Source: Candidatus Omnitrophota bacterium (GTDB lineage: Bacteria; Omnitrophota; Gorgyraeia; Gygaellales; Profunditerraquicolaceae). Taken from it: a DNA stretch of 64,000 bases. Each line of letters opens with the position of its first letter. The stretch's first letter is position 1. Both the position numbers and the translations under genes were made by a program. The stretch is from positions 85,636 to 149,635 of the forward strand of contig JAQUOD010000003.1 of the NCBI GenBank assembly GCA_028717245.1, in the 5' to 3' direction. Below are positions 7,783-35,737 of this stretch, one piece after another. The notes beneath the pieces are model-generated. The model worked only from the letters and a program-made list of their open reading frames with translations. It searched no databases and had not been told where the DNA came from.

Positions 7783-7787
7783 AAAAT

Positions 7788-8822: not shown

Positions 8823-8829
8823 TAAAAGC

Positions 8830-9759: not shown

Positions 9760-9765
9760 ACAAAT

Positions 9766-10962: not shown

Positions 10963-10980
10963 GTTTATATTATAGCTAAA

Positions 10981-12651
10981 ATGATAAACTTTTTTTACCC
11001 TTTATTTAAATGGGATAGTTTAAATAGTTTTGTGGTCCTGGCAATAGGTTTATTCTCCGTCCTGACCATAATCTATTCTTTTGGCTTCATGAAAGGAAAA
11101 CAGCGGCTTTTTCAATATTATACCTATATTATCTTAACGGCAGCCGCCTCTGTGTTAGCCGTACTTTCTAACCATCTGGCTTTACTTTTATTGTTCTGGG
11201 GTTTTTTGGGCCTGACGCTTTATCTTCTTGTGAATATGGGCGATAATGCCAGCGCTATAGCCAAAAAGACCTTTATTATCGTAGGCGGTTCGGACGCATT
11301 AATGTTATTGGGCATAGGCATTATTTATTATCTTGCGGGCAGCATGCAGATGGATATGATTAAAATCAGGCCGGATAGCGGCCTAGCAATATCGGCCTAT
11401 CTTTGTATTGCCGTTGCCTGTTTTGCCAAGGCCGGTGCCATGCCGTTTCATTCCTGGATTCCGGATACAGCCAAAGATGCCCCGCTTCCGGTGGTAGCGT
11501 ATCTTCCCGCTGCGCTGGATAAATTATTAGGGATTTATCTTTTGGCGCGGCTCTCCCTGAATTTATTTGTAATGAACAACGGCTTAAATATATTCCTTAT
11601 GGTTATCGGCGCCTTTACTATCGTGGCTGCGGTGATGATGGCTTTAGTCCAGCACAATATGAAGAAACTCCTGGGTTACCATGTGGTTTCACAGGTAGGG
11701 TACATGATTTTAGGTATAGGCACGGGTAATCCTATTGGTATTGCCGGCGGCCTCTTCCATATGCTAAACAACGCAATATATAAATCCTGTTTATTTTTCA
11801 CCAGCGGCAATGTTGAGTATCGCACTAAAACCAGCGAATTAGATGAATTAGGCGGCCTTGCCAGGGCAATGCCCCTTACCTATATATCCGCGCTTGTGGC
11901 CAGCCTTTCGATATCCGGGATTCCGCCTTTTAACGGATTTTTTTCCAAATGGATGATCTATCAAGGAATTGTTGAAATGTTTAAAAGTTCAAATATTTAC
12001 GTGTTTAAAAATCTTTTATGCATGTTATGTTTAATTGCAGCGATGCTTGGAAGTACTTTGACTTTAGCATCATTTATGAAAATAATTCATGCTGTTTTTT
12101 TAGGACAATCGCCTAACATTAAAACATTCCAGCATTCCAACATTTTAACAGAAGTCCGTTGGGCAATGTGGCTTCCCTGCATTATTTTGGCAGGCCTTTG
12201 TATTATCTTCGGCGTATTTGCTGTGCAGCTGCCCATGAAATATTTTATTTTACCCGTCGTGGGCCCGGTTGTTTTTATCGGGGCATGGTATGCGGGCTTA
12301 TCGATGCTACTGATAGTTGTTGCTTTAGCCATAGGTATTTTTATAGTGGGTTTTGGTTTATTAAAGACTTCTCTGCGCCAGGATGTGGCATTCACGGGTA
12401 CAGAATCCCTCGATTTAGAAGAGCACAGGGTCACGGGAACGGAATTTTATAACACTATCAGGGAATTCGGCATTTTTAAAGCGCTTTATAAAAAAGCAGA
12501 GGCAGGATTATTCGATATTTACGAAGGGCTTAAGAAGCTGGTATTTGCCGTATCCGGGGCAATGCAGTATTTACATAACGGCATATTGCCGACATACCTG
12601 GTCTGGTGTTTATTAGGGATGGCGGTTTTATTTTTCTGGTTTTTTAGATAG
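10981..12651 (+). CDS. Mrp antiporter subunit A / NuoL-like membrane subunit (MbhH-like)
   Basis: 556 aa, ~16 TM, NuoL/MrpA family motifs (WIPDTAKDAPLPV, VSQVGYM). Confidence 0.8.
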   Translation: MINFFYPLFKWDSLNSFVVLAIGLFSVLTIIYSFGFMKGKQRLFQYYTYIILTAAASVLAVLSNHLALLLLFWGFLGLTLYLLVNMGDNASAIAKKTFIIVGGSDALMLLGIGIIYYLAGSMQMDMIKIRPDSGLAISAYLCIAVACFAKAGAMPFHSWIPDTAKDAPLPVVAYLPAALDKLLGIYLLARLSLNLFVMNNGLNIFLMVIGAFTIVAAVMMALVQHNMKKLLGYHVVSQVGYMILGIGTGNPIGIAGGLFHMLNNAIYKSCLFFTSGNVEYRTKTSELDELGGLARAMPLTYISALVASLSISGIPPFNGFFSKWMIYQGIVEMFKSSNIYVFKNLLCMLCLIAAMLGSTLTLASFMKIIHAVFLGQSPNIKTFQHSNILTEVRWAMWLPCIILAGLCIIFGVFAVQLPMKYFILPVVGPVVFIGAWYAGLSMLLIVVALAIGIFIVGFGLLKTSLRQDVAFTGTESLDLEEHRVTGTEFYNTIREFGIFKALYKKAEAGLFDIYEGLKKLVFAVSGAMQYLHNGILPTYLVWCLLGMAVLFFWFFR

Positions 12652-12657
12652 GAGAAT

Positions 12658-13179
12658 ATGGAGATTTATCTGCTTTTATTATTTATGATTGTGGCTGCCA
12701 TAGCTGCGATTGAAATCAAGGATATGCTCTCTAGCGTCATTGCCTTGAGCACGGTAGGCCTGGGCCTATGCCTGGCGTTTTTGATTTTAAAGGCGCCTAA
12801 CCTGGCTATTATGCAATTGGTTATTGAGCTCTTATGCCTGATCCTGCTTATCCGCGCCACCATCAACAAGGACCTGCCTCTGGTCAGGGATGGGCGCTGG
12901 CTCTTTAATACTATAGCTAGCGTATTATTTATTGCCGTATTTTTAATTTTTGCTTATTTTGCGCTCCTTGAGCTGCCTCGTTTCGGTGAGCCGATTATGC
13001 GCGTTTCGCAGGAATATATTGCCCGGGGGTTAGAAAAAACCGGTTCGGCTAATATTGTGACGGCAGTCGCCCTTAACTTCCGCAGTTACGATACGTTAGG
13101 CGAGATTGCCGTGCTGGCGACTGCAGTAATAGGCATACTTGCAGTGATGAGGAAGACAGGAAGGATACATGGAAAATAA
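12658..13179 (+). CDS. MrpB-like (DUF4040) membrane subunit
   Basis: small polytopic protein in Mrp module position. Confidence 0.55.
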   Translation: MEIYLLLLFMIVAAIAAIEIKDMLSSVIALSTVGLGLCLAFLILKAPNLAIMQLVIELLCLILLIRATINKDLPLVRDGRWLFNTIASVLFIAVFLIFAYFALLELPRFGEPIMRVSQEYIARGLEKTGSANIVTAVALNFRSYDTLGEIAVLATAVIGILAVMRKTGRIHGK

Positions 13180-13555
13180 GGAAGCAGGGATGGGTATAAT
13201 CGTTAAGACCATTACCCGTTTGACTATCGGCCTGATATTTATCTATGGCATATATGTCAGCCTGCACGGCCATATGCGGCCGGGCGGCGGATTCGCCGGG
13301 GGGCTAATCATTGCGCTTTCTTTTATCCATGTCCTGCTTGCCTTCGGCAAGGATGTTGCCTTGAAGAAATTGAATCAAACATTCCTGTTATCCCTGATGG
13401 CCTTGGCAGCAGCGGTTGTTTTGCTGATTTTAATATCCAGGCCAGCGAATTTAATTATTCTTTCTTTATGCGATATAGCCATATGTTTTACCGTGGGGGC
13501 GGGGTTGTTCATAATTTTTTTGGCTTTAGCTTTGATAAAAAAAGACGGGGCGTAG
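13169..13555 (+). CDS. MnhB/MrpB-like membrane subunit
   Basis: 128 aa hydrophobic, Mrp module context. Confidence 0.5.
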   Translation: MENKEAGMGIIVKTITRLTIGLIFIYGIYVSLHGHMRPGGGFAGGLIIALSFIHVLLAFGKDVALKKLNQTFLLSLMALAAAVVLLILISRPANLIILSLCDIAICFTVGAGLFIIFLALALIKKDGA

Positions 13556-13558
13556 ATT

Positions 13559-13897
13559 ATGATGATATATATATTGTGTTTTATACTTTTTTCTATCGGC
13601 CTTTACGGCGTATTGCGTAAGAGAAACGTCATCAAGATTATCATCGGCCTGGTAGTTATGGATTACGCCGTCAATCTATTCCTGATCCTGGTAGGTTATC
13701 GTTTAAAGGGCCGCGCGCCCATATTTGCCAAGGACCAGGTAATTTTAAATATGGTCGACCCCTTACCCCAGAATTTAGTTTTGACTGCCATGGTCATCGG
13801 CCTGGTTATTACTGCTTTATTGGCGGCTATTGCCATAAGGATATACGAAAAGTACGGTACATTCGATATCACTAAAATAAATAAACTGAAAGGTTAG
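13559..13897 (+). CDS. MrpC / NuoK-like subunit
   Basis: ~110 aa, 3 TM, NuoK-like pattern. Confidence 0.65.
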   Translation: MMIYILCFILFSIGLYGVLRKRNVIKIIIGLVVMDYAVNLFLILVGYRLKGRAPIFAKDQVILNMVDPLPQNLVLTAMVIGLVITALLAAIAIRIYEKYGTFDITKINKLKG

Positions 13898-13901
13898 GTT
13901 T

Positions 13902-15404
13902 ATGCATCAGGTATCGCCGGTATTATTTGTCGCTATTCCTTTAACAGCAGCATTCTTTATTATCCTTTTAGCGAGGGCATTAAAGCAGCTGGAGTATATT
14001 TTTTCTATACTGGCCAGTTCCGTACTTTTTTTGTTATCCTTAAGCGTCTTATTCTTTATACCCAAGGCAACAAATAATATATTTGTTTATAAACTGGGCG
14101 CCTGGCTTCCGGCGCTGGGCGTATCTTTGGCCCTTGACGGTTTGAGCGCTTTAATGCTGGTTACGGTCAATCTGATTAGTTTCTTAGTTACAATATATTC
14201 TTTAGGTTATATGCAACGCTATAGCGACAAATGGAAATTCTCTGCCTTATTTATGCTGATGTTGGCAGGGATGAACGGGATAATTATAAGTGCGGATTTA
14301 TTCAGTATCTATGTATTTTTGGAAGTCGCCTCTATAGCCGGTTATGCCTTGGTTGCTTTTGGCACTGAGTCAGAAGACCTGGAGGCCTCTTTTAAATATG
14401 CGGTGATGGGTTCTGTGGCTTCTATCTTTATTCTCCTGGGCATAGCCATGCTCTATAGTTATACTTCTACCTTGAATATGGCGGATATGGCCGCGGTATT
14501 ATCCGCGAAACCCCAAGGTATGATCATTCGATTTGTAACGGTTTTATTCTTAGCCGGTTTTGGCCTGAAGGCCGCAATAGTCCCTTTTCATGCCTGGCTG
14601 GCGGATGCGCATCCGTCTGCCCCGGCGCCGGTATCCGCAATTCTATCAGGGGTATTTATTAAAACCTCAGGCATATATGCCTTAAGCAGGGTTATTTTTA
14701 ATATCCTGGGAGTTTACGGTAAAGTGCTCTGGGTTTTTATAATCCTGGGGGTATTGTCAATGGTAGCAGGGGCATTTCTGGCAATAGCGCAGAAGGATAT
14801 TAAAAGGATGTTTGCCTATTCTAGCGTCAGCCAGATAGGTTATATTATCTTTGCCCTCGGGATTAACACGCCCTTAGCTATTTTTGCTGCCTTATTCCAT
14901 CTGGTCAATCATGCCTTATTTAAGTCGCTCCTCTTTTTGGATGCCGGCGCAATAGAGTATTCTACCGGCACGCGCCGGCTCGATAAATTAGGAGGGTTAA
15001 GCAGCCGCCTGCCTGTTACGTGCTCCACAAGTTTAATCGGTTCCTTGGCTATTTCGGGCATTCCGCCTTTGGGCGGTTTCTGGAGTAAGTTACTTATTGT
15101 TATAGCAGCAGTCCAGGCGCGCTACTTTGGACTGGCCCTGACGGCAGTGCTGGTGAGTATAATCACCCTCGCTTATTATTTAAAATTCCAGAATTTTACA
15201 TTTTTCGGCAAATCCGAAACCAGCCGGAAGGATATAAAAGAGGTACCCCTGAGCATGAAGATGCCTATGATTATTTTGGCAGTTATCTGCGTATTGAGCG
15301 GGTTATTATTGGCCCCTGCATTCAGGCCTTTTCTTCAGAGGGCAGCCGAGGTTTTATCGTCAGGCAATAATTATCAGAATATCTCCGCGGGTGCAATAAA
15401 ATGA
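13902..15404 (+). CDS. MrpD / NuoM-N-like antiporter subunit
   Basis: 500 aa, ~14 TM, NuoN/MrpD motifs (VPFHAWLADAHPSAPAPVSA, SSVSQIGY). Confidence 0.8.
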   Translation: MHQVSPVLFVAIPLTAAFFIILLARALKQLEYIFSILASSVLFLLSLSVLFFIPKATNNIFVYKLGAWLPALGVSLALDGLSALMLVTVNLISFLVTIYSLGYMQRYSDKWKFSALFMLMLAGMNGIIISADLFSIYVFLEVASIAGYALVAFGTESEDLEASFKYAVMGSVASIFILLGIAMLYSYTSTLNMADMAAVLSAKPQGMIIRFVTVLFLAGFGLKAAIVPFHAWLADAHPSAPAPVSAILSGVFIKTSGIYALSRVIFNILGVYGKVLWVFIILGVLSMVAGAFLAIAQKDIKRMFAYSSVSQIGYIIFALGINTPLAIFAALFHLVNHALFKSLLFLDAGAIEYSTGTRRLDKLGGLSSRLPVTCSTSLIGSLAISGIPPLGGFWSKLLIVIAAVQARYFGLALTAVLVSIITLAYYLKFQNFTFFGKSETSRKDIKEVPLSMKMPMIILAVICVLSGLLLAPAFRPFLQRAAEVLSSGNNYQNISAGAIK

Positions 15405-15898
15405 TAAAGACGCGTATAATCCTGTTTATATTGGCATGGCTAGTTTACCTATTATTAAGCTGGTCCTTGTCTCTGGGGGATTTAATTGCGGGGGTGCTCT
15501 TGGCTTTGACGGTTTCCTGGTTAACCCACGATTTATTTATACAGGATCCCCATATTTTTAAGGATCTTAAGCGCTACCTCTGGTTTATTTATTATATTCC
15601 TTTATTTATCTGGGAATGTATCAAGGCAAATGTTGACAGCGCCTACCGTATAGTGCATCCTGCCTTACCTATACGGCCGGGGATCGTCAAAGTAAAGACT
15701 ACCCTGAAGTCGGATATTGGGTTAGTATTCCTAGCCAATACCCTCACCCTTAAGCCGGGCACTATGACTGTGGATATCGATAAAGAAAATGGTTTTTTAT
15801 ATGTGCACTGGGTTGAGGTTGGGAGTGAAGATATGCGGCAGGCAACAGACATGGTTATCGGCAAGTTCGAACGCATACTGAAGAGGATATTTGAATGA
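15401..15898 (+). CDS. MrpE-like subunit
   Basis: position and size in Mrp order A-B-C-D-E-F-G. Confidence 0.55.
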   Translation: MIKTRIILFILAWLVYLLLSWSLSLGDLIAGVLLALTVSWLTHDLFIQDPHIFKDLKRYLWFIYYIPLFIWECIKANVDSAYRIVHPALPIRPGIVKVKTTLKSDIGLVFLANTLTLKPGTMTVDIDKENGFLYVHWVEVGSEDMRQATDMVIGKFERILKRIFE

Positions 15899-16254
15899 AG
15901 AGGCTGCGCTGGTTTTTGGGGCTAATAATTATTTTATTTATTTTTTCCGCGATTCTGTTTTACCCTTTACCGTCTTTACTGGAATGGCAGTCCGTATTTT
16001 TAAAAAAGGCATTTTTTATCCTGCTTTTCTGCGGCGTATTCTGTTTGTGGCGCGTATTAAAAGGCCCGACCGCCGTGGATAGGGTGGTAGCTATAGATAT
16101 CCTGGGGATTATCATTGTGGGCTTCTGCGCTATTTTAGGCATTCCTACGGGCCGCGACTGGTACATTGATATCGGTATTGCCTGGGCGCTGCAGAGTTTT
16201 ATTTCCATTTTGGCTTTGGCTAAATACCTGGAAGGAAAAAATTTTGAGGAATAA
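15895..16254 (+). CDS. MrpF-like subunit
   Basis: ~119 aa, 3 TM, Mrp module order. Confidence 0.55.
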   Translation: MKRLRWFLGLIIILFIFSAILFYPLPSLLEWQSVFLKKAFFILLFCGVFCLWRVLKGPTAVDRVVAIDILGIIIVGFCAILGIPTGRDWYIDIGIAWALQSFISILALAKYLEGKNFEE

Positions 16255-16260
16255 ATAAAA

Positions 16261-16587
16261 ATGAATGAGATTTTCGGCATGGTTATGATTATGGTCGGTT
16301 TGGGGTTTAATTTTTTAGGTTGCCTGGGGCTGATAAGGCTGCCCGACGTCTATAACCGCTTGCATGCCTCTATCAAATGCGTGACCTTAGGGACCAGCAG
16401 CATACTTTTCGGCTTATTCCTCTATAAAGGTTTTACTGCCTGCGGGGCGAAGGCCCTTTTATGCATATTATTTCTGGCATTAACCGCTCCTGTGTCAGCT
16501 CACGTCTTATCCAGGAGCGCGCATAAATCAGGCGTGAAGCTTTGGGAAAAGTCAGTCTGCGATAAGTACGCAGAAGATAAAAAATGA
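16261..16587 (+). CDS. MrpG-like subunit
   Basis: ~108 aa, MnhG-like hydrophobic pattern. Confidence 0.65.
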   Translation: MNEIFGMVMIMVGLGFNFLGCLGLIRLPDVYNRLHASIKCVTLGTSSILFGLFLYKGFTACGAKALLCILFLALTAPVSAHVLSRSAHKSGVKLWEKSVCDKYAEDKK

Positions 16588-17183
16588 AATATCCCAAACT
16601 AAGAGAATTAAAAGAAGCAATAAGGGCACTCATCAAGGGTCCTTACACTTCTAAGTTTCCTTACCAGCCGCATAAGCCTTTTGAGAGATTCCGGGGAAAG
16701 CCGGAATTCCACGAGAAAGATTGCGTGGGTTGCGGCGCCTGTTTTCAGGTCTGCCCGTCAGGGGCAATCAAGATGGAAGATACCAGAGGCAAGAGGGTCC
16801 TGACGCTGAATTGGGATATGTGCATATTCTGCGGGCAATGCCAGGCCAATTGCATAACCGGTAAAGGCATTATGCTTTCCAATGAATTCGATTTAGCGAC
16901 AACGGGAAAAAGAGGGGAGCTAAAACAGACGATAGAAAAGGAATTTATTGTTTGCTGCTGTTGCGGTGAAAACATTATACCTTACGCGCAGATGCTCTGG
17001 GTAGCCAATAAACTCGGCCCGCTTTGTTTCTCCAATGCTTCGTTGATGCTTTTTTATCTAAAAGACTTAGGACTCGCCCCTGAAACAGAATGCCCTCCTA
17101 AGGAAGGATTCGGATTCCGGCGCGCTGACCGTATAGAAGTCCTCTGCCCCCGCTGCCGGCGCCTAGCTGTGCTCAAATCCTAA
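16584..17183 (+). CDS. 2x[4Fe-4S] ferredoxin subunit MbhN / NuoI-like
   Basis: CVGCGACFQVCP and CIFCGQCQANC motifs. Confidence 0.8.
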   Translation: MKYPKLRELKEAIRALIKGPYTSKFPYQPHKPFERFRGKPEFHEKDCVGCGACFQVCPSGAIKMEDTRGKRVLTLNWDMCIFCGQCQANCITGKGIMLSNEFDLATTGKRGELKQTIEKEFIVCCCCGENIIPYAQMLWVANKLGPLCFSNASLMLFYLKDLGLAPETECPPKEGFGFRRADRIEVLCPRCRRLAVLKS

Positions 17184-18578: not shown

Positions 18579-19031
18579 ATGAAGAAGTTCGTATTTATCG
18601 TTTTAGCCTTAGTAGTGAGCATTTCTCTGTTTAGCTGCGCTAAAAAAGAGCAGTCCCTTACAGAAATGCAAGAACCGCTTTCCATAGAGGAATTAGGTAA
18701 CCAGGGTTATGTTTCAACGCCCGAAACAACTTCTAAAACCGCTACACCCGCAGTAACAATAGTTCCGGTTGAGACAAAAACAGAACTGCCCTTGCCGCCT
18801 ACAACCTTTAAGCCCACGGTTGAAGAGATTCAGACCGCGCTTAAGAATTCCGGTTACTATACGGGATTGGCGGATGGCAAAAAGGGACCCATGACCAAGA
18901 AGGCAATTGAGGATTTCCAGAGGGCAAATAATCTGGAAGTTGACGGTAAAGTCGGGCCTAAGACCTGGGCCTTATTGAGCCAGCATCTTAACCCCGCGTC
19001 CGTTTCGTCTACGTCCAAGAAAAAAAGATAA
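18579..19031 (+). CDS. Lipoprotein with C-terminal peptidoglycan-binding (PG_binding_1-like) domain
   Basis: lipobox LFSC; GKKGPMTKKAIEDFQRANNLEVDGKVGPKTWALL repeat typical of PG-binding domain. Confidence 0.65.
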   Translation: MKKFVFIVLALVVSISLFSCAKKEQSLTEMQEPLSIEELGNQGYVSTPETTSKTATPAVTIVPVETKTELPLPPTTFKPTVEEIQTALKNSGYYTGLADGKKGPMTKKAIEDFQRANNLEVDGKVGPKTWALLSQHLNPASVSSTSKKKR

Positions 19032-19901: not shown

Positions 19902-21122
19902 GTGATTCAATTCCCTAAAGATTTCTTCTGGGGTGCAGCCACATCTTCCTATCAGGTAGAAGGCAACAATATAAATAGCGACTGGTGGGAGTGGGAGAAG
20001 AGAGTCGGTTTAAGGGACGCCTCAGGCCAGGCCTGCCGCCACTATGAGTTTTATAAAGAGGATTTTGCCTTAGCAGCTAGCCTTAACCATAACTGCCACC
20101 GTTTATCCATAGAGTGGAGCCGCATTGAACCCCGGGAGGGGGAGTTTTCAGCATCAGAAATACAGCGCTATAAAGAAGTAATCCTTTCCTTAAAGGCCAA
20201 CAGCCTTGAACCTGTAGTTACCCTGCATCATTTTACTAACCCGCTTTGGTTTGCAAAATTAGGGGGTTGGCAGAATAAAAAGTCCGGCTTTTACTTTTTA
20301 CGTTACGTGGATAAGGTGGTGCGGGAGCTGGCTCCAGGAGTGCGCTATTGGGTAACTATAAACGAACCTCTGGTTTATGCCTATCATGCCTATATCCTGG
20401 GTGTCTGGCCGCCCCAGGAGAAATCCATTCTTAAAGCTAACCGCGTCCAGGAAAATTTGATCCGCGCCCACATAGAAACCTATCGTTTGATCCGGCGCAT
20501 TTACGAAGATAAATCCTTAAATTATCCTTTAATAAGTATCGCCAAGAATACGCAGGCGTTTGTTGCCTGCATCCCCACCCTAAGAAATAAGATCGCTGTT
20601 TATTTAAGAAACAGGTATTACAATCTTGATTTTGTAGAGAGGCTGCTACGTGCCAAGACGCTGGACTTTATAGGCATAAATTATTATAGCCGCAGCCTGG
20701 TGGAGACGCAAGGCTGGGGCATCAGGAACCTGACAATGGATGTCTGCCAGGGAGGCCATAGTTGCCTTAAGAAGAACTCTATGGGCTGGGATATTTATCC
20801 TGAAGGTTTATACAGCGTGCTCTTAGAATTTAAAAAATATAACCTGCCGCTGTTTATTTTAGAAAACGGCGTATGTACTGACGACGATAATTTAAGGTGG
20901 GATTTTATCTATGCGCATTTAAAAAATTTACATCTGGCGATACAGGCAGGGGCGCCTCTCTTAGGCTATATTTACTGGTCGCTGATAGACAATTTTGAAT
21001 GGGATAAAGGTTTCGCCCCGCGTTTCGGCCTTATTGAAATAGATTACCATACTTATAGGCGCACTGTCAGAGAAAGCGCAAAGAGACTTTCTTTAGTCTG
21101 TAAGACGGGCAGGTTGGAGTAA
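19902..21122 (+). CDS. Glycoside hydrolase family 1 beta-glucosidase
   Basis: FPKDFFWGAATSSYQVEG N-terminal GH1 signature, TINEP and ENG catalytic Glu motifs; GTG start. Confidence 0.9.
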   Translation: MIQFPKDFFWGAATSSYQVEGNNINSDWWEWEKRVGLRDASGQACRHYEFYKEDFALAASLNHNCHRLSIEWSRIEPREGEFSASEIQRYKEVILSLKANSLEPVVTLHHFTNPLWFAKLGGWQNKKSGFYFLRYVDKVVRELAPGVRYWVTINEPLVYAYHAYILGVWPPQEKSILKANRVQENLIRAHIETYRLIRRIYEDKSLNYPLISIAKNTQAFVACIPTLRNKIAVYLRNRYYNLDFVERLLRAKTLDFIGINYYSRSLVETQGWGIRNLTMDVCQGGHSCLKKNSMGWDIYPEGLYSVLLEFKKYNLPLFILENGVCTDDDNLRWDFIYAHLKNLHLAIQAGAPLLGYIYWSLIDNFEWDKGFAPRFGLIEIDYHTYRRTVRESAKRLSLVCKTGRLE

Positions 21123-21124: not shown

Positions 21125-23134
21125 ATGGAGACCGTAAATAAAGACTACATCTTCCAGGAGATTCCTTTATTTTTAGGCTTATCCCGAATAGAATTAGATA
21201 TTATTAAGGAAAAAAGCAGTTTCGTAGAATACAGGAAGGGAGAGCTTATTTATAAAGAGGGTTCGCCTCCGGATGCCTTTTATTGCATTATTCTAGGCAG
21301 GGTAGTCATCTATACCCAGGACACCCAGGGCAACGAAACAGCCCTGGAGTATCTGCACCGCGGAAAATATTTCGGGATTATCTCGCTTTTGACAGGCGAG
21401 CCCCATTCCGTTACTGCCAGGGCCATAAATGACAGCCTGCTTCTGGTGATTAAGAAAGAAGACTTCGATTTTGTTTTGAAGAAGATCCCGCGCCTGGCTA
21501 TTGATTTAAGCCAGACCTTATCCCGCAGGCTCAAACGCAAGGACATCCACCAGAAGACGGTTTTTGAAAGCGCTATTATTGCCGTATTCAGCTCTTATTC
21601 GCAGGCCGGTAAGACTGTATATGCGCTGAATCTGGCTTTAAGCCTTCAAAAGGAAACGCATAAGTCTGCGGCCATATTGGATATATGCCTTAAGGATAAT
21701 ACCCACAGCCTGCCCGCAAAATTAGAAATTAATACCAACTATCCTGTTTTTAGTCTCTCTGGCTCTACGGCAGATGCCCCTGATAAGATAAAAGATTTCG
21801 TTTTACATAATAACTTCGGCATGGATTTAATCTGTTTTTCTTACGAACAGGAAGATGCCTCTTGCGTGAAAAACCTGATCGCTGTTTTAACCCTTTTAGT
21901 GAACGATTATCACTACCTGATTTTAGACTTACCTTCGGCCATGGACCGCGCGGTCTTTGATATGCTGCATCAGTCAGACGTGATTAATATCCTTACCAGC
22001 CCTGAGCCTGTGGATTTAAAGAGGACGCGCCATTTGATAGAAAGGCTTAAAGCAGACTTTCATTTCCCCGAGAAAAAGATAAAAGTCATCATTAATGAAT
22101 ATAAACTCTCCAGGCTTACGCATGAAGGGCAAAGAGAACTTTTGGGTCAGCCGATATTCGCTACCCTGCCTAAGATAGAATTTTCCAGCACTGACAGGCT
22201 GGTATTGACGGGCCCGGATAGCGAATACGCCAAAGCTGTAAAAAGAATCGCGCGCCAGATGGGGGATTGTTTGGTAGGCCTGGCATTAGGCGTGGGCTTT
22301 GCTTATGGTTTTTGCCATATCGGGGTCTTGAAGGTAATTGAGGAGGAGAAGATACCCGTAGATGCGATCGCCGGCTCCAGTATCGGCGCGGTTATCGCTG
22401 CCCTTTGGGCGACAGGTAAGTCATCTGGCGAGATACTCCAGATAACCAAAGAATTCAAAGAGCCCAAATACATCTGGAGTTTTATAGACCTGACCCTGCC
22501 GCTAATGGGCTTTATTAAAGGCAATAAACTCTATAATTTCCTGAAGAAACACTTAGGAAATAAGACTTTTTATGATGTCAAGCTGCCATTGATGATTATC
22601 GCCAGCGATGTAAAAAAGAAAGAATCCCGGATTATAGATAAAGGTTTGCTGATAGACGCGATTATGGCCAGCTGTGCCATGCCCGGCGTATTCAAGCCCT
22701 TTAAATTTAAAGAGGAAATATTGTTTGACGGAGGAGTGATCAATCCTTTGCCTACGGAGGCATTATTTAAAACAGGCATGAAAAAGATTATTGCCGTGAA
22801 TGTCACGCCCTCTAAAGAGGATATACTCAGCCAATACGAAAAAGTAAAGGAAGCCATTGATATAAAGGAGATAAAAAAGAAGAAGTGGTTCGGTTTAGGC
22901 AGCTATATTAGGGATAAGTTCAAAGATAATATAGTCGGCATCATATTCAGCAGTATCGAGATGCTGCAGTCGGAAGTGGCGCAAAAAGAGGCGCAGCTGG
23001 CGGATATCGTGCTTCATCCGGATACCGGCGGCCTGCATTGGCTACAACTGCATAAGTCAGAAGATTTTGCCAAAAGAGGAGAGGATGAAACGCGTAAGAA
23101 CCTAGATAAAATCTGGCAGGTCATTAATGAATAA
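21125..23134 (+). CDS. Tri-domain protein: cyclic-nucleotide-binding domain + degenerate ParA/MinD-like domain + patatin-like phospholipase
   Basis: cNMP-binding pattern (FQEIPLF...GELIYKEG...ITGEPHSVTARA); SQAGKT and YHYLILDLPS ParA-like motifs; patatin GxGxxG (GVGFAYG) and GSSIG serine motif, DGG. Confidence 0.8.
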   Translation: METVNKDYIFQEIPLFLGLSRIELDIIKEKSSFVEYRKGELIYKEGSPPDAFYCIILGRVVIYTQDTQGNETALEYLHRGKYFGIISLLTGEPHSVTARAINDSLLLVIKKEDFDFVLKKIPRLAIDLSQTLSRRLKRKDIHQKTVFESAIIAVFSSYSQAGKTVYALNLALSLQKETHKSAAILDICLKDNTHSLPAKLEINTNYPVFSLSGSTADAPDKIKDFVLHNNFGMDLICFSYEQEDASCVKNLIAVLTLLVNDYHYLILDLPSAMDRAVFDMLHQSDVINILTSPEPVDLKRTRHLIERLKADFHFPEKKIKVIINEYKLSRLTHEGQRELLGQPIFATLPKIEFSSTDRLVLTGPDSEYAKAVKRIARQMGDCLVGLALGVGFAYGFCHIGVLKVIEEEKIPVDAIAGSSIGAVIAALWATGKSSGEILQITKEFKEPKYIWSFIDLTLPLMGFIKGNKLYNFLKKHLGNKTFYDVKLPLMIIASDVKKKESRIIDKGLLIDAIMASCAMPGVFKPFKFKEEILFDGGVINPLPTEALFKTGMKKIIAVNVTPSKEDILSQYEKVKEAIDIKEIKKKKWFGLGSYIRDKFKDNIVGIIFSSIEMLQSEVAQKEAQLADIVLHPDTGGLHWLQLHKSEDFAKRGEDETRKNLDKIWQVINE

Positions 23135-23147
23135 AATGGAGGAAAAA

Positions 23148-23705
23148 ATGTTAAATCCCAAATCCCAATTTACAAATCCCAAACAAATCCCAAATCCCAA
23201 TTTACAAAATTATAAACAAAAAATTTTCAGTCATTGGTTATTATTGGGAATTTGCTACTTGATGTTTGGAATTTTAATGAGCGGTTGCGCTTCGCTGACC
23301 GAGGCGGCTAAAGGGTTCGCCGGCATTTCTACCAAAGTTCTGGAGGACAACCGTAGTTCTGCCATCACTAAGGTCTTTAATTACGATTACTTTAGCTCTT
23401 ATACCAAAACGCTGGATATCCTTAAGCGCATGGAGGCATACATTTATAAACAGGACATTAAAAAGCATATGATTGCTATTTATGTTTCCCGCGAAGATAC
23501 TACTGTGGTGGGTTTATTTTTTAAAGAGATAGACGCTAATAATACCAAAATAGAAGTATCTTCGCCGAGCACCTATGCCAAAGAGTTTATTTCCGCAGGC
23601 GTATTTTCTGTTTTGGATAAAACAATGACTTTGGAAGAACTGGAGGTGCGTACCCGTGTACAAAGACAAAAAGCAAAAGAACAAGCAGGACTGGGAGATA
23701 AATAA
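23148..23705 (+). CDS. Putative lipoprotein (start uncertain)
   Basis: GGAGG RBS 5 nt before ATG 23148; hydrophobic segment then Cys (LMSGC); N-terminal region made of a frame-inconsistent 8-nt periodic DNA repeat. Confidence 0.45.
   Translation: MLNPKSQFTNPKQIPNPNLQNYKQKIFSHWLLLGICYLMFGILMSGCASLTEAAKGFAGISTKVLEDNRSSAITKVFNYDYFSSYTKTLDILKRMEAYIYKQDIKKHMIAIYVSREDTTVVGLFFKEIDANNTKIEVSSPSTYAKEFISAGVFSVLDKTMTLEELEVRTRVQRQKAKEQAGLGDK
23155..23215. repeat. Period-8 ATCCCAA repeat block (23-nt unit aaatcccaaatcccaatttacaa x2)
   Basis: aaatcccaaatcccaatttacaa atcccaaac aaatcccaaatcccaatttacaa; partial inverted copy attgggaatttg at ~23236. Confidence 0.6.
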
Positions 23706-23985
23706 ATTTATCAGGGAATGCCACCGTATCGCTAAAGATAAGGGTTGGTGGGACAGCGAACGTAACGACGGAGAGCTCATCGCCCTGATGCATTCGGAGT
23801 TATCCGAGGCCTTAGAGGCGATGCGTAACCACGGCCACAAAGATAATATTGCGGAAGAATTGGCAGACTGCTGCATCCGTATCTTTGATTACTGCGGGGC
23901 CAGAGATATTGACCTGGAAAAAACCCTCCTGAAGAAAATAGAATATAATAAGACCCGTCCCTACCGGCATGGTAAAAAATTCTAA
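23656..23985 (+). CDS. MazG-like nucleotide pyrophosphohydrolase
   Basis: EINKFIRECHRIAKDKGWW...LIALMHSELSEALEA...EELADCCIRIF helical NTP-PPase pattern; GTG start with GGAGG RBS. Confidence 0.65.
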   Translation: MYKDKKQKNKQDWEINKFIRECHRIAKDKGWWDSERNDGELIALMHSELSEALEAMRNHGHKDNIAEELADCCIRIFDYCGARDIDLEKTLLKKIEYNKTRPYRHGKKF

Positions 23986-25026: not shown

Positions 25027-25497
25027 ATGTTAGACCATCTTAAATCTCACCTAAAAGGTAAAGTGGCCATCGTGGGTATCGGCAATACCATGCGTAGTGA
25101 CGATGGGGTGGGGTCAGTTTTGGCCAGCCGCCTCAAAGATAAGGTAGCGTTTAAAGTTTTTGATGTTGGCGTAAGCCCGGAAAACTACTTAGAAAAGATT
25201 ATCAAAGAAGAGCCCGACACTATAGTGATTATAGACGCGGTGGATTTCGGGGCTAAGCCGGGAGAATTCCGGATTCTGGAGGCGCGGGATTTAAAAACAA
25301 CCAATCTCTTTGCCACGCACAATGCCTCTATTTCCTTGACCATAAATTACTTGCAAAGCAATTTAAAGGCGGATATAATTATTTTAATTATTCAGCCGGA
25401 ATCGATTGCTTTCGGGGAAGGATTGAGCCGGGAAGTGGCCCGGAGACTGGATAGGCTGGAGAGTTGGTTTCATGATACAGGCAAAGAAGAGGGATAG
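25027..25497 (+). CDS. hycI: Hydrogenase maturation protease (HycI-like)
   Basis: VAIVGIGNTMRSDDGVG N-terminal protease motif, ~156 aa. Confidence 0.8.
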   Translation: MLDHLKSHLKGKVAIVGIGNTMRSDDGVGSVLASRLKDKVAFKVFDVGVSPENYLEKIIKEEPDTIVIIDAVDFGAKPGEFRILEARDLKTTNLFATHNASISLTINYLQSNLKADIIILIIQPESIAFGEGLSREVARRLDRLESWFHDTGKEEG

Positions 25498-28587: not shown

Positions 28588-29613
28588 GTGGCAACTCTCC
28601 GTCGGAGAAACGAATCATACTTTGTTGACTACCGGATTAACGGTAGGCGCTTCCGTAAAAAAGTAGGTCCTTCCAAAAGAATAGCCGAGCTTGCCCTAAA
28701 AGATATAGAAGTTAAAATAGCTAAGGGTGAATTAGGTTTTTCACCAAAAGACAATTCTCTAGAGAAGCTATTTGAAGAATATCTTAAATACTCCAAGATA
28801 AACCACGCTCCGAATACTTACGAAAGATACAGGGGGATTCTTGATAACTTCAAGTCTTTCCTTGCTACTCGCCCCTATGTAAATAAGATTTCTCATTTAG
28901 ATCCTAAGTTATTTGAAGATTATAAGCATTTCCGTAAAGAGGGGAAAGCTGAAGATAAAACAGTTAATATAGAGCTTCAGATGCTCCGGGGTATGTTTAA
29001 TTTGGCACGGAAGTGGGGTTATTCTCAAAATAATCCCACAGAAGGCGTAACTTTCTTTAGAATTACCAAAACCCAGGAGCCAAGATTTCTCTCAAAAGAA
29101 GAATGCGAGAAGTTGCTAAATAATTGTGGAGAAGAGTTATATCCTATATTCTTTACTTTTCTTAACACTGGCATGAGAAGAGGTGAGTTGCTTAATCTTG
29201 AATGGAAAGATATAGATTTTAGCAGGAAGAGACTACAAATAAGAGCTAAAGAGGATTGGGAGCCTAAAACCTCAGAACGGTATATTCCTATGAACGATAG
29301 CTTGATAAAGGTACTAAAGAAGCATAAGGAAAAGAGTAGAGGCAGTTTAGTATTTACTGATAATAAAGGCGAGAAAATTCATAAAAACGAAATTAGGAAG
29401 GAACTTATTCGGATCACAAAGAAAAGCGCTTTTCCCGATGTAACAAAATTGCATAGTCTCCGGCATACTTTTGCAAGCCATTTGGTTATGAGCGGAGTAG
29501 ATTTGCCCACAGTAAAAAAACTAATGGGGCACTCAGACATAGAGACAACTATGATTTATTCTCACTTAGCGGATGAACACGTAGATAGGGCAGTAGAAAA
29601 ACTGGAGTTTTAG
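28588..29613 (+). CDS. int: Tyrosine-type site-specific recombinase (phage integrase family)
   Basis: C-terminal catalytic HSLRHTFASHLV...GHSDIETTMIYSHL (R..HxxR..Y) motifs; GTG start. Confidence 0.9.
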   Translation: MATLRRRNESYFVDYRINGRRFRKKVGPSKRIAELALKDIEVKIAKGELGFSPKDNSLEKLFEEYLKYSKINHAPNTYERYRGILDNFKSFLATRPYVNKISHLDPKLFEDYKHFRKEGKAEDKTVNIELQMLRGMFNLARKWGYSQNNPTEGVTFFRITKTQEPRFLSKEECEKLLNNCGEELYPIFFTFLNTGMRRGELLNLEWKDIDFSRKRLQIRAKEDWEPKTSERYIPMNDSLIKVLKKHKEKSRGSLVFTDNKGEKIHKNEIRKELIRITKKSAFPDVTKLHSLRHTFASHLVMSGVDLPTVKKLMGHSDIETTMIYSHLADEHVDRAVEKLEF

Positions 29614-29630
29614 TAGAGTGAGCTCTGAGA

Positions 29631-30425
29631 ATGAATAATAACTATATGCAAAAAAGTCAAAAAAAGACAAAACCAAATGTGAGGGATGAGCTCTCGAGGC
29701 GGGACACCTTACCCAGAGACTTTTTTGTTTTGTTTAATTTCTTTTCTGATCCAACCAGAGATATTTTATCGAAAATATTCTATAAGGCAATGAAGGTCGT
29801 TTATTTTAAGTTCAAAAGGAAAAAGGATATTTGGGAAGCAAAATTGATACGCAAAAATAAACCCTTGAGAGATTTTTATCCTCTCAGCAAAACAGATATT
29901 TCAAATTCCATTTATCTAGTAGATCATTATTTATCAAATCTTTATATTATTCCACCAGAGTGCGATCCTTTATCAAAATTTGGTCATTTTCCTTATGATG
30001 ATGCTATCAAGTTTTATGAGGAATATGTAGAAGGTAGTGTTAAAGATATTTATGGTAGAGAGATTGTTCTTGATGAAAACGGCCTAAATTCATTATTTGA
30101 TCATGATCCAGATCTTAATCCGAAGAACTATAGCGAGTCTCGAGGAAAACGACTTCCCTGGATAATACCAACACTTAGAAATTCTAAAGGAATCTATGAA
30201 TTTACCGAGCGATCCTGGACAACTTATTATTATATTAGCGCATTAAATGTGCCATATAAAGACAAAGCAACGGGAGAAGTATCAAAAGTTATGCATTACT
30301 TCTTTATTGTTATTAGAAAAGAGGCAGGGAAGCCACTAACTCTTATTACTGCATATCATTTTGATAAAGAATTAATGTTTTTGAAATTCTTAGAACCAGC
30401 ACACCCATTTATATATATGCCATAA
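29631..30425 (+). CDS. Hypothetical protein, co-transcribed with integrase
   Basis: 264-aa ORF 18 nt after int stop; no recognisable motif. Confidence 0.45.
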   Translation: MNNNYMQKSQKKTKPNVRDELSRRDTLPRDFFVLFNFFSDPTRDILSKIFYKAMKVVYFKFKRKKDIWEAKLIRKNKPLRDFYPLSKTDISNSIYLVDHYLSNLYIIPPECDPLSKFGHFPYDDAIKFYEEYVEGSVKDIYGREIVLDENGLNSLFDHDPDLNPKNYSESRGKRLPWIIPTLRNSKGIYEFTERSWTTYYYISALNVPYKDKATGEVSKVMHYFFIVIRKEAGKPLTLITAYHFDKELMFLKFLEPAHPFIYMP

Positions 30426-30616
30426 ATAAAGCTTGCAAATCTAAGATAAATGTTGTATGCTTATATCAGTTGAAGATTGCGGTGTAGGTTATCTGTTGTT
30501 TCTACTGGCGGGAATGACAGTCAAGCCTTGCCGCATAACACCAGCCTAAAAATACCAACCAAAAGTTGGTATTTTTTGTTTTATAGAGAGAAAAACAGTT
30601 CAGTTATTAAAAATTA

Positions 30617-30633
30617 GGCACATTTTGGGCACA
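30617..30633 (+). promoter_or_regulatory. GGCACA-TTTT-GGGCACA direct-repeat operator-like site
   Basis: aGGCACAttttGGGCACAg upstream of ORF 30708. Confidence 0.45.
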
Positions 30634-30707
30634 GAAAGACAGGTGATATTCATAACTTATTGAAAAGTAATAGATAAGAGTCGATTGATGTAGAACGAGG
30701 TGTTCTA

Positions 30708-31469
30708 ATGGATTGTTGGTTAAATTTAGGGATCACCGGAGGGTGTTGCTGGCCTACTGAGGACAAAAAGATTTTATTTGGCGGGCATGAATTTCTTCTA
30801 AAACCTGCGACTAGGGAAACAGAACAGTCTATTCATATTAACATTAGTAAGGAAAAAATGTCTCGTATTGATGCGATGACTCTTGTTAACAGGTTTTTAA
30901 GTATTATTTCATGGTGTGATGGTGGGAATGGAGGTATGGATATTATATATGATATCGGTGTGTCTAATGTCGCCCCTATTGCTATACCGATGAGAAGGAG
31001 AATGCTAGGTTCCTCAATAGATTTTCCATTTTACCGGGATATAGAAAAGAATCATAAAGCGTCTTTAGCGCTTGCCCTTTACAGAGAAGGCTTAGTAACG
31101 GATTCTGTTCCTTTGTCTTTCTTGAGCTTCTTTAAGATTATAAATATCTTTTATAATGACAAAACTACAAGAGTAAATAAACAGAAGCCTCAGAATGAAT
31201 TGATCGCAAGCCTAGGAAGTTTACTTCAGCATATAAAGTGTGACCTTGCCACGAAAAGAATAGATGAGCTCAAAAAATCAGTAAATGACATCCCGAAGTA
31301 TTTATATGAACGCCGGTGTGCAATCGCTCATGCATTTGTAGATCCAACAATTGATCCGGATAATGTGGCTGAATCAAGGGATTTATCTCAAGATACATGG
31401 ATTATAAGGGCGATAGCAGATTATCTAATAGAGAAAAAACTCAATGTTTCAAAATCAATATTGGGGTAG
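30708..31469 (+). CDS. Hypothetical protein with C-terminal HEPN-like Rx4-6H motif (candidate RNase/Abi-like)
   Basis: ERRCAIAHAF (R-x4-AH) near C-terminus in predicted helical domain. Confidence 0.5.
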   Translation: MDCWLNLGITGGCCWPTEDKKILFGGHEFLLKPATRETEQSIHINISKEKMSRIDAMTLVNRFLSIISWCDGGNGGMDIIYDIGVSNVAPIAIPMRRRMLGSSIDFPFYRDIEKNHKASLALALYREGLVTDSVPLSFLSFFKIINIFYNDKTTRVNKQKPQNELIASLGSLLQHIKCDLATKRIDELKKSVNDIPKYLYERRCAIAHAFVDPTIDPDNVAESRDLSQDTWIIRAIADYLIEKKLNVSKSILG

Positions 31470-31512
31470 TAAGCACATTAAAAGATAGAGGAGCATTTAA
31501 CTTGAACCAATT

Positions 31513-31530
31513 GGGCACAAGTTAGGCACA
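31513..31530 (+). promoter_or_regulatory. GGGCACA-N5-GGCACA operator-like site
   Basis: ttGGGCACAagttaGGCACAaat upstream of ORF 31637. Confidence 0.4.
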
Positions 31531-31636
31531 AATTTAATCATGGTCAATCCTATCTGCTTGGATTATAACAAGTAGTAGTTATTAGTATTAGATCAGTATA
31601 TTCTAAACTAATCTTGATTGTTACAAGGAAAACAAG

Positions 31637-33199: not shown

Positions 33200-33203
33200 A
33201 ATA

Positions 33204-33220
33204 GGCACATTTTGGGCACA
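33204..33220 (+). promoter_or_regulatory. GGCACA-TTTT-GGGCACA operator-like site
   Basis: taGGCACAttttGGGCACAaat upstream of ORF 33364. Confidence 0.45.
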
Positions 33221-33363
33221 AATAAACGGTAATCTTTATAACTTCTTGTATTTCATGAAACAAAGAAAAGTAGTTTAGAACAGATAGTTCTAACTCGCTC
33301 AAAAAGTGATATAATGATTCTATAATCACAATAGGTTGCAAATAAGATATGAGAAAAAAGTGA

Positions 33364-33678
33364 ATGGATGATAAAATGCAGCCAATAACTTGGGAAGATT
33401 TTGTATTACAAAGATACGAATGGACGAAAGTTTCTAGGTATGCAGTAACATTGGATGGTATCTTAGTGCGAGACGATAGTAAACCCGACAGTCCCTTTTA
33501 CATGTGCCTATGGGAAGGCTGGTGGGAGCCGCAGGGCTTGCCAGCAGTCGGCGTGAGCATAAGAGATGTACTTGAGGCAAAACCGGTCAGCACGGAAGAA
33601 GCGAGAGAGATAATACGCCGGGAAGCAAAACCTAGAGTAATGAGACCAGCGGAAAGAAAAAACTGGAGATTTGATTGA
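33364..33678 (+). CDS. Hypothetical protein (104 aa)
   Basis: ORF with Trp-rich segment WEGWWEPQG; no motif. Confidence 0.4.
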   Translation: MDDKMQPITWEDFVLQRYEWTKVSRYAVTLDGILVRDDSKPDSPFYMCLWEGWWEPQGLPAVGVSIRDVLEAKPVSTEEAREIIRREAKPRVMRPAERKNWRFD

Positions 33679-33772
33679 TACAAATTATTATTGATTGTTT
33701 TCTTTGTTGAGGTAATATTGAGTTAGACAATCTGGTCCAATAGCTTTACCTTAAAGAGGCTTTAAGGCCTCT

Positions 33773-33851
33773 AACAGTGACGTAAGGTAAGCTGCATTAC
33801 TCCCCGAAAGGGGAGGGGGAAATGCAGTCTTATCGGATTTACGTCACTGTT
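33773..33851 (+). other. 79-nt three-tier hairpin: 13-bp perfect stem (aacagtgacgtaa/ttacgtcactgtt), 8-bp inner stem, 6-bp stem with GAAA tetraloop; T-tract 15 nt downstream
   Basis: perfect inverted repeats; ctccccgaaaggggag GNRA hairpin at centre. Confidence 0.55.
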
Positions 33852-33911
33852 GCCGGTAGGAATATGCGCCCCCTTTTTTGTTAAAGTGGGTATATATAAA
33901 GGAGGGATAAG

Positions 33912-35640: not shown

Positions 35641-35655
35641 TGTTTAGGGAAAATT

Positions 35656-35723: not shown

Positions 35724-35737
35724 ATCCAGGCTTTTAA

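Follow-up and report, generated by a model that had tools for sequence, protein, structure and literature searches.

A CRP-type sensor, a degenerate MinD/ParA-type domain and an intact patatin lipase joined in a conserved protein family, chiefly of Omnitrophota

Introduction

What purpose is served by a protein that unites, in one polypeptide, a sensor domain of the CRP type, a domain related to the MinD/ParA ATPases and a patatin-like lipase? The question is raised by a gene at 21125..23134 (+) in a stretch of 64,000 nucleotides from a Candidatus Omnitrophota bacterium (GenBank assembly GCA_028717245.1, contig JAQUOD010000003.1, positions 85,636 to 149,635 of the forward strand), which is termed the window in the following and in which all coordinates are given. 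The gene is complete and encodes 669 amino acids plus stop, comprising a cyclic-nucleotide-binding (CNB)-like sensor, a MinD/ParA-like domain that is likely a pseudo-ATPase, and a patatin lipase. An earlier sequence-only reading had described the arrangement as unusual and had pointed to effectors that are controlled by nucleotide second messengers, e.g., in defense systems. Here, we report that the protein represents a real and strongly conserved family that joins a CRP-type sensor, a decayed MinD/ParA-type domain and an intact patatin. Sequence comparison leads us to regard it, with moderate confidence, as a cytoplasmic, ligand-regulated patatin-type lipid acyl-hydrolase with a pseudo-ATPase relay that would act in lipid catabolism or turnover.

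Domain Architecture and Occurrence of the Family

The ATG-started open reading frame (ORF) is the sole long one at this position, the opposite strand is dense with stop codons, and the N-terminus of the deduced protein agrees with those of its homologs. Pfam assigned cNMP_binding (PF00027) to residues 34-119 (E = 2e-22, 79.3 bits vs. a gathering score of 27.5), CbiA (CobQ/CobB/MinD/ParA) to residues 152-350 (E = 6e-6, 26.6 vs. 25.4 bits) and Patatin (PF01734) to residues 386-547 (E = 2.5e-31, 109.8 vs. 27.7 bits). NCBIfam models for CRP (residues 24-139), archaeal MinD (residues 151-379) and RssA (residues 382-667) were matched as well, all of them far below their equivalog cut-offs. The ORF check, Pfam and NCBIfam thus agree with the sequence-only reading that a single frame of 669 residues encodes three domains, and the motifs quoted there (SYSQAGKT, YHYLILDLPS, TSPEP, GSSIG and DGG) are all present. 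An AlphaFold (AF2) model of the full-length protein reached a pLDDT of 75.5 and a pTM of 0.52, with inter-domain geometry that is not reliable; in Foldseek searches with this model, the C-terminus matched PlpD (TMt 0.80-0.84), the N-terminus CRP-type proteins and the middle part the structure 3ea0. Neither a signal peptide nor a transmembrane helix was detected, the highest-scoring 19-residue Kyte-Doolittle window being formed by strand beta1 and the Gly loop of the patatin domain, and this absence points to a cytoplasmic protein. A secreted toxin resembling ExoU, PlpD or VipD was considered and rejected on the grounds that signal peptide, transmembrane segment and translocator domain are all lacking.

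The survey of homologs and their gene neighborhoods that the sequence-only reading had proposed revealed a large family, with a synteny block in the window's own clade and with beta-oxidation and glpK operons in relatives. A first homology search yielded 862 matches, the best 120 of which share 67-91% identity with the query at 91-100% coverage, and are nearly all 658-699 residues long. Those that bear an organism name stem from Candidatus Omnitrophica/Omnitrophota, in which homologs of this identity range number in the hundreds; the labels in the source records read "NTE family protein" or "patatin-like phospholipase family protein". As many of the best homologs already bear the combination PF00027+PF01656+PF01734 in precomputed annotation, the protein cannot be called unusual in the sense of rare. 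Some 70 divergent full-length relatives were found in Omnitrophota, some Verrucomicrobiia and metagenome-assembled genomes (MAGs) labelled Planctomycetia. A profile of the central domain, run against 1.84 billion representatives, produced 2782 matches, to which the three domains were assigned with local hidden Markov models. The best of these matches are full-length tri-domain proteins of 640-754 residues, followed by REC-plus-MinD/CpaE-like proteins of about 370-430 residues with a canonical S/T-K-G-G-x-G-K-T/S motif; one of the REC-MinD-like matches is fused to a T2SSE (CpaF-type) ATPase. On the other hand, and in line with the earlier failure to match the architecture to any described one, no paper describing a CNB - pseudo-MinD - patatin protein was found in literature searches, the sequences residing in public databases under generic names. 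The one paper that recurred in these searches deals with the Lipocone superfamily and touches on patatin and on Omnitrophota without any relation to the architecture. The tri-domain proteins constitute an uncharacterized family, chiefly of Omnitrophota.

The Patatin Domain Is Intact

The C-terminal lipase domain (residues 386-669; 22280..23131; this and all other features of the gene lie on the + strand) is of the RssA/PlpD type according to Pfam PF01734, NCBIfam RssA, Foldseek and an alignment with PlpD (PDB 5fqu, E = 8e-23); the cut-off of the RssA equivalog (NF007623) is not reached (99.1 vs. 272 bits). The sequence-only reading had called three patatin motifs intact. This holds true for the nucleophile elbow GSSIG (residues 417-421 with Ser419; 22373..22387), which aligns with GTSMG of PlpD, and for DGG (residues 535-537 with the catalytic Asp535; 22727..22735), which aligns with DGG of the same protein, while the Gly-rich oxyanion loop GLALGVGFAYG (22277..22309) does not literally follow the pattern GxGxxG but reads G389-V-G391-F-A-Y-G395, i.e., GxGxxxG as in PlpD. 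The Arg of PlpD's GGAARG, which is the basic residue of a GGxR/KG-type loop, is replaced by Tyr394, and Leu, Phe or Tyr occupies this position family-wide. Altogether, the domain resembles the RssA/PlpD patatins (PF01734; PDB 5fqu/5fya) in the whole RssA model over the C-terminal 285 residues as well as in the Gly-rich loop, GxSxG and DGG. It differs from PlpD in Tyr394, in having neither a type-Vd translocator nor a POTRA domain and in carrying a regulatory N-terminal extension of 385 residues.

Motifs were counted in a close set of 38 members and in 80 others, 10 of which belong to the window's clade, so that 70 are divergent. Among the 80 members outside the close set, GxSxG is retained in 78 and DG[GA] in 79. 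When 44 sequences with just 28-64% identity to the query are aligned, 16 positions prove invariant. Nearly all of them belong to the patatin domain (G385, L388, G391, G400, D413, S419, G421, G431, S516, D535, G536, P541 and G652), two others being the glycines G58 and G84 of the CNB domain. Judged from these motifs, the Ser419/Asp535 dyad is intact and the protein belongs to the patatin superfamily.

The Central Domain Has a MinD/ParA Fold and a Decayed P-Loop

The second question concerns the middle of the protein (residues 140-385; 21542..22279). A profile built from the central regions of 21 family members matched 3ea0, a ParA-family ATPase of Chlorobium tepidum, with E = 4e-11 in the PDB, followed by Soj and MinD. 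When the domain was modelled alone (pLDDT 85.5, pTM 0.86), the top Foldseek matches were SIMIBI ATPases throughout, namely 3ea0 (TMq 0.76), FlhG (0.73-0.75) and MinD (0.72-0.76), with FleN, Soj, BcsQ and NifH coming next; 3ea0 is thus the top match by sequence as well as by structure. The equivalogs for MinD and CpaE (TIGR01968, TIGR01969, TIGR03815) are not reached (minD_arch 27.9 bits vs. 201.75, minD_bact 21.7 vs. 212.9). Nevertheless, Pfam CbiA, the PDB profile, the domain model and Foldseek concur that the central region is a genuine MinD/ParA fold with a degenerate Walker A motif, as the sequence-only reading had stated. The names in the source annotations would suggest an ordinary lysophospholipase of the NTE/RssA family with a mere linker in the middle, but the probability of this is negligible in view of a predicted structure that matches MinD/ParA proteins at a TM-score of about 0.75 and of 44 invariant positions out of 246, which is above what a linker would show. 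A middle region consisting of linker only is refuted by the PDB profile search, the domain model and Foldseek.

It is less obvious whether this fold still works as an ATPase. If it did, ATP-dependent dimerization could position the lipase or recruit it to the membrane or the pole, comparable to what CpaE/TadZ, MinD and FlhG accomplish with their cargos. In the window's clade, several features agree with such a role: the P-loop is virtually fixed as FSSYSQAGKT with invariant S156, S157, G162 and K163, the Asp of the Walker A'-like motif AILDI (Asp186; 21671..21685) is present in 36 of the 38 close members, and Asp268 of the Walker B-like motif YHYLILDLPS (residues 262-271; 21908..21937) is invariant; TSPEP follows at residues 291-295. 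Furthermore, the nearest non-fused relatives are REC-MinD/CpaE-like ATPases. However, an alignment of the Walker A motif SSYSQAGKT (residues 156-164; 21590..21616) with NQKGGVGKT of Soj reveals that, measured against xKGGxGK[ST], the signature Lys has become Tyr158 and Gly-Gly has become Ser-Gln, with only GKT being retained. GK[ST] is present and the signature Lys absent in all 38 close members, which likewise lack both glycines. Beyond the clade, decay has gone further. Only 17 of the 70 divergent members possess GK[ST], while the remaining 53 feature sequences such as ALLQGQ, AQQERS, PEINSR or YREDQA in its place, and about a quarter of the divergent tri-domain members lack the Walker B Asp as well, all this with the patatin dyad staying in place. 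In addition, the domain lacks a C-terminal amphipathic helix for membrane targeting and passes straight into strand beta1 of the patatin domain. We therefore regard an active MinD/ParA-type ATPase as quite improbable.

Because GK[ST] is kept in so few of the divergent relatives, the central domain appears to be a pseudo-ATPase family-wide, and selection would seem to act on the chemistry of the lipase and not, at least across the family as a whole, on ATP turnover by the middle domain. The sole position of this domain among the 16 invariant ones is Arg377 (22253-22255), which is located in its last helix. With GKT, Asp186 and Asp268 conserved, there is room for nucleotide binding as an additional input in the window's clade, but not for the canonical hydrolysis in a sandwich dimer.

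Outside the family, the nearest relatives of the central domain are the REC-MinD proteins (CpaE/TadZ- and MinD-like, ~400 residues; 3ea0), which share the order of a sensor or receiver-like domain of ~135 residues followed by MinD/ParA. They keep KGGxGK[ST], known atypical variants aside, and have no enzymatic C-terminus, whereas the tri-domain protein has CNB in place of REC, a degenerate P-loop and an attached lipase. In its working idea, it resembles a sensor-gated patatin such as NTE/PNPLA6, and in its build, a "sensor plus MinD" unit of the CpaE/TadZ type with an added lipase. The pseudo-ATPase probably descends from such sensor-plus-MinD/CpaE-type ATPases, as judged by sequence, which occur in the REC-MinD form of ~400 residues and in a rarer CNB-MinD form. 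The latter is exemplified by P0240 (410 residues), which combines a canonical CNB domain (FFGEMALIEGEPRSATV, FGE...PRS) with a canonical MinD-like ATPase (SAKGGVGKS) and contains no lipase. P0240 may be a cNMP-regulated ATPase of the MinD/ParA type and is a plausible evolutionary intermediate.

The Sensor Domain Has Diverged From Cyclic Nucleotide Receptors

Residues 1-139 (21125..21541) adopt the CNB fold of CRP and protein kinase A (PKA), with a C-terminal helix at residues ~122-137, as established by Pfam PF00027, by PDB sequence matches to PKG, PKA-R and the CRP of Thermus thermophilus and by Foldseek matches to CRP, GlxR and DNR. In the phosphate-binding cassette of CRP, PKA and PKG, a Glu (FGE) touches the ribose 2'-OH and an Arg (PRxA) the cyclic phosphate. 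The corresponding cassette FGIISLLTGEPHSVTA (residues 83-98; 21371..21418) is non-canonical: HMMER alignments place YFGIISLLTGEPHSVTA opposite "yfgE(l/r)all..ePRsat" of PKG/PKA, with Ile85 at the Glu position and His94 at the Arg position. Hence, of the cyclic nucleotide (cNMP)-binding domain announced by the sequence-only reading, the fold stands while the two contacts are replaced. The pair of Glu and Arg that marks a functional cNMP receptor is lacking in each of the 38 close members, which all have Ile85 and His94; in the close-clade alignment, H94 is invariant and I85 at least 90% conserved. Outside the close set, His occupies the Arg position in 75 of 80 members and Arg in just two, while the cassette Glu is kept in about half of the divergent members.

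These substitutions bear on the classical explanation, according to which the patatin is switched on by cAMP or cGMP from a cyclase encoded elsewhere, a mode of control that has been suggested for mycobacterial CNB-patatin proteins and for those of the NTE/PNPLA6 type. The match to the CNB domain is strong, His is able to hydrogen-bond phosphate, half of the divergent members keep the Glu, and the canonical cassette Arg has been preserved, within FGE...PRS, in more distant proteins from Chloroflexota (L032, L034) and Candidatus Vecturithrix (L030) as well as in P0240. This distribution makes it likely that the ancestor responded to cNMPs and that the binding pocket was altered later, in the Omnitrophota/PVC family. 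On the other hand, canonical gating by cAMP or cGMP is doubtful for the tri-domain protein itself, since His94 stands in for the cassette Arg throughout the family and Ile85 for the Glu in the window's clade. Moreover, the earlier statement that no cyclase is adjacent holds within the scanned set: Pfam identified no nucleotide cyclase among the 29 window ORFs scanned, i.e., those within ~8 kb of the gene and 20 other large ones, with ~45 smaller ORFs lying outside the scan. A few small ORFs flanking the gene were identified by synteny alone or left unscanned. Taken together, we consider a classical cNMP-gated lipase unlikely. The sensor probably does not take cAMP or cGMP as its ligand in the classical manner, and "cNMP-binding" is a label for its fold that says nothing on the ligand.

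The two Chloroflexota sequences are CNB-patatin proteins of 559 residues with a short degenerate middle region. The Candidatus Vecturithrix gene (L030, 7905-9839) encodes a tri-domain homolog that features ASNTG as its nucleophile motif and DGS in place of DGG and whose product is probably catalytically dead, going by these motifs.

A comparison with NTE/PNPLA6/Swiss-cheese (SWS) and bacterial CNB-patatin proteins leads to a similar picture. They have in common with the tri-domain protein one or several CNB-type domains located N-terminally of a patatin esterase, and for SWS, the CNB sites have been reported to influence phospholipase function (PMC12710771). NTE, however, possesses a transmembrane anchor and three CNB sites and has no MinD/ParA domain, whereas the protein studied here contains a single CNB-like domain with a His-substituted cassette and an intercalated pseudo-ATPase and has no transmembrane segment. 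Both the anchor and the tandem CNB domains directly preceding the esterase that characterize the NTE/PNPLA6 proteins are missing, and the label "NTE family" is one of source annotation only.

The C-terminal helix of the sensor is connected to strand beta1 of the ParA-like domain by the linker RKDIHQKTVFES (residues 138-149; 21536..21571). It is near-invariant, with H142, K144, F147 and E148 invariant, despite a model pLDDT below 50.

Gene Neighborhood of Divergent Relatives

In order to assess which process the lipase may serve, the neighborhoods of relatives are informative. GTDB species representatives were scanned with the patatin pattern G[LFI][AS]H[IV]GV..., which is not matched by the sequence GFCHIGV of the window's clade. 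Apart from many stand-alone patatins, the scan thus brought up divergent relatives only, and it was blind to beta-oxidation-linked paralogs in close-clade genomes. Tri-domain genes were present in 18 loci (L007-L024), mostly from Omnitrophota MAGs, the others being several MAGs labelled Planctomycetia or Planctomycetales, two Verrucomicrobiia and one unclassified bacterial MAG. Five further loci (L025-L029) encode a ParA-like domain plus patatin without the sensor, and many stand-alone RssA-like patatins were also recovered.

In 14 of 24 divergent ParA-patatin loci, genes for beta-oxidation or glpK are located on the same strand within at most 8 kb, and in 12 of the 24 such a gene is the immediate neighbor (gap of at most 75 nt or overlap). 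A thiolase gene starts 7-36 nt past the lipase stop codon in five loci (L010, L011, L015, L017, L023) and is usually followed by genes for 3-hydroxyacyl-CoA dehydrogenase, enoyl-CoA hydratase and an AMP-binding acyl-CoA ligase. In L008 and L013, a gene for acyl-CoA dehydrogenase ends 4-15 nt upstream of the lipase gene; in L026, L028 and L029, the start of the lipase gene is overlapped by a FadB-like gene; and in L015 and L021, GlpK is encoded directly upstream (676 and 629 bits vs. an NCBIfam cut-off of 590). For the catabolism of glycerolipids, an operon with a gene order such as glpK - lipase - fadA - fadB - fadD (or acyl-CoA dehydrogenase) would be expected, as the lipase would free fatty acids and glycerol and the products of the neighboring genes consume both; the arrangement in the divergent relatives points to such a pathway.

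The sensor-less variants of L025-L029 stem from Omnitrophota and comprise ~500 residues without a CNB domain (e.g., L026, 1811-3349 and 3363-4508). In four of these five loci (L026-L029), a gene for a REC-HisKA-HATPase hybrid kinase follows directly after the ParA-patatin gene, which suggests that the sensor input has been exchanged for a two-component system. In L005, L009, L011, L016 and L023, small PilZ-domain proteins of ~115-130 residues are encoded no more than a few kb away from the tri-domain gene, with the PilZ gene being situated directly upstream in L011 (3689-4072) and L016.

Proposed Function and Mechanism

According to the mechanism that we favor for this lipid acyl-hydrolase, a ligand bound by the N-terminal sensor would set the activity of the lipase. 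The signal would travel from the C-terminal helix of the sensor via the near-invariant linker to the MinD-like domain, and the latter would control the attached patatin domain as a rigid dimerization or relay module and not as an ATPase. A module of this kind is the most likely role of the MinD-like domain because the family as a whole dispenses with the ATP-binding P-loop. By analogy with CapV and CapE, for which titles of PDB entries indicate ligand-driven oligomerization, it is plausible that a dimerization relay gates a patatin. The enzyme would free fatty acids from glycerolipids, either for catabolism or for the turnover of membrane lipids.

Several observations weigh against this picture. 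The relay mechanism is deduced and not read from a structure, given the unreliable placement of the domains relative to each other in the full-length model. The invariance of S156, S157, G162 and K163 in the window's clade argues, on the level of sequence, for retained ligand binding and against a purely structural role of the central domain, and His94 could still touch a cyclic phosphate. The relatives associated with beta-oxidation and glpK are just 31-38% identical to the window protein and may be paralogs instead of orthologs, and the window's clade is devoid of a beta-oxidation or glpK context, the nearby lipid genes seen being those for a CDP-alcohol phosphatidyltransferase and for an Aas-like protein 18 kb upstream. 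Finally, in 19 of 56 loci with stand-alone RssA-like patatins, a 3-hydroxyacyl-CoA dehydrogenase gene is likewise close by; the association with beta-oxidation is thus not specific to the tri-domain form.

In a broader and distinctly more tentative formulation, the tri-domain proteins would make up a novel class of intracellular lipases under ligand control that contains a MinD/ParA pseudo-ATPase relay and a sensor moved off cAMP/cGMP and that governs the entry of glycerolipids into the glpK/beta-oxidation route in Omnitrophota. The sensor might then respond to a metabolite derived from lipids, to a non-canonical nucleotide or to a signal dependent on pH or metal, the lipids would possibly originate from hosts or prey, and through the GKT retained in the window's clade, adenylate or energy status could enter as a further signal. 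To our knowledge, proteins of the ParA/MinD type have otherwise been described as positioning ATPases that stand alone; the proposed mechanism would thus provide a case of a pseudoenzyme of this fold serving as a regulatory module inside a metabolic enzyme. The family also advises caution in annotation, as "cNMP_binding" does not imply cAMP/cGMP signaling here, and, for the physiology of the largely uncultured Omnitrophota, it connects a regulated lipase in a testable way with operons that serve the breakdown of glycerol and fatty acids. A lipase scaffold that can be switched by a ligand may also be of practical use.

Gene Neighborhood in the Window's Clade

In the window and three syntenic loci of the close clade (L001, L003, L005), the gene order is PG_binding_1 lipoprotein - GH1 - tri-domain gene - lipoprotein - small MazG-like protein, with GH1 missing in L003. 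The PG_binding_1 lipoprotein-like gene (18579..19031, +) is found upstream in all four loci, the GH1 beta-glucosidase-like gene (19902..21122, +) in three of them. Only 3 nt separate the GH1 stop codon from the ATG of the tri-domain gene, and the two are probably co-transcribed. This tight junction raises the possibility that glycolipids are among the substrates of the lipase. Downstream, the gene for a conserved lipoprotein with the lipobox LMSGC (23127..23705, +; 52-66% identity in L001, L003 and L005) overlaps the stop codon of the tri-domain gene by 8 nt. It is followed by the gene for the small MazG-like protein (23656..23985, +; Pfam MazG weak with 20.6 bits vs. 22; 76-82% identity in the same three loci). 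With the GTG start as listed, the latter gene shares 50 nt with the 3' end of the lipoprotein gene; as its homologs comprise 102-103 residues, the true start probably lies downstream of the listed GTG. The degree of conservation is unusually high for a protein of ~100 residues. NCBIfam yielded no matches for these two conserved downstream genes. Further downstream, a CDP-alcohol phosphatidyltransferase is encoded in all four loci (~4.4 kb downstream in the window) and an SNF transporter in three (none was seen in L005). Upstream, a membrane complex of the Mrp/Mbh type is encoded in three loci, with L001 featuring unrelated biosynthetic genes instead.

This conserved context is also relevant for the idea, hinted at by the sequence-only reading, of an effector responding to second messengers in defense. 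On this account, the protein would be a nucleotide-activated patatin of the CBASS or Pycsar type that wrecks the cell membrane upon phage attack or in abortive infection. PADLOC indeed delivered matches on the level of single domains, to a CBASS phospholipase effector (E = 6e-12) and, for the CNB region, to PycTIR/TIR effectors (E = 1e-8), the NCBIfam model CBASS_lipase was hit with 29.2 bits, Foldseek indicated likeness to CapV and CapE, and an island with an integrase and HEPN-AbiU2 begins 5.5 kb downstream. However, such matches are far under the family cut-offs (200 bits in the case of CBASS_lipase), and no CD-NTase or Pycsar cyclase was detected among the scanned neighbors. The gene is embedded in housekeeping synteny conserved in four Omnitrophota genomes, with the island lying outside it, its relatives reside in beta-oxidation and glpK operons, and an identity of 67-91% over many metagenomes speaks for a core gene passed on by vertical inheritance. 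The resemblance to CapV/CapE of CBASS and to the Pycsar effectors is confined to a patatin lipase or a CNB-type sensor in a nucleotide-controlled effector; CapV, which is devoid of a CNB domain, binds cGAMP directly, whereas the tri-domain protein follows a different sensor logic, has no cyclase partner that could be found and stands in a housekeeping or catabolic context. The hint at defense is thus not substantiated, and we rate an anti-phage effector as very improbable.

The island itself extends over 28588-36400 (+) and comprises a phage-type integrase gene (28588-29613) followed by genes that are missing from the syntenic loci, including those for a MauJ-like protein (30708-31469) and for a 520-residue protein with BSP peptidase and HEPN AbiU2 (31637-33199). 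It probably constitutes an integrated island with a defense-type gene that starts right after the conserved CDP-alcohol phosphatidyltransferase gene.

Further Genes in the Window

The Aas-like protein mentioned above is encoded at 454-3114 (+), on the same strand as the tri-domain gene. It comprises 886 residues and has AMP-binding, PP-binding (carrier) and Acyltransferase domains, i.e., the architecture of an Aas-like acyl-ACP synthetase/lysophospholipid acyltransferase, and would re-acylate lysolipids made by the patatin lipase. A same-strand cluster at 5273-17183 (+) and 25027-25497 (+) specifies a group-4-like membrane-bound [NiFe] hydrogenase or Mrp-type complex. Pfam identified Fer4_22, NAD_binding_1, NADHdh, Complex1_49kDa/NiFeSe_Hases and Proton_antipo_M on window ORFs of this cluster, while MNHE, MrpF, PhaG and Fer4 are deduced by synteny with L003 and L005. 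The gene for the HycI maturation protease is parted from the cluster by the lipase block. All ~65 consecutive predicted genes within 1-54800 are located on the + strand, with only two short ORFs at 55008-56094 on the - strand. Among the former is a gene for a DUF2099 protein (47711-48700, +; E = 2e-78), a family described as "conserved in archaea" that is encountered here in a bacterial (Omnitrophota-like) window.

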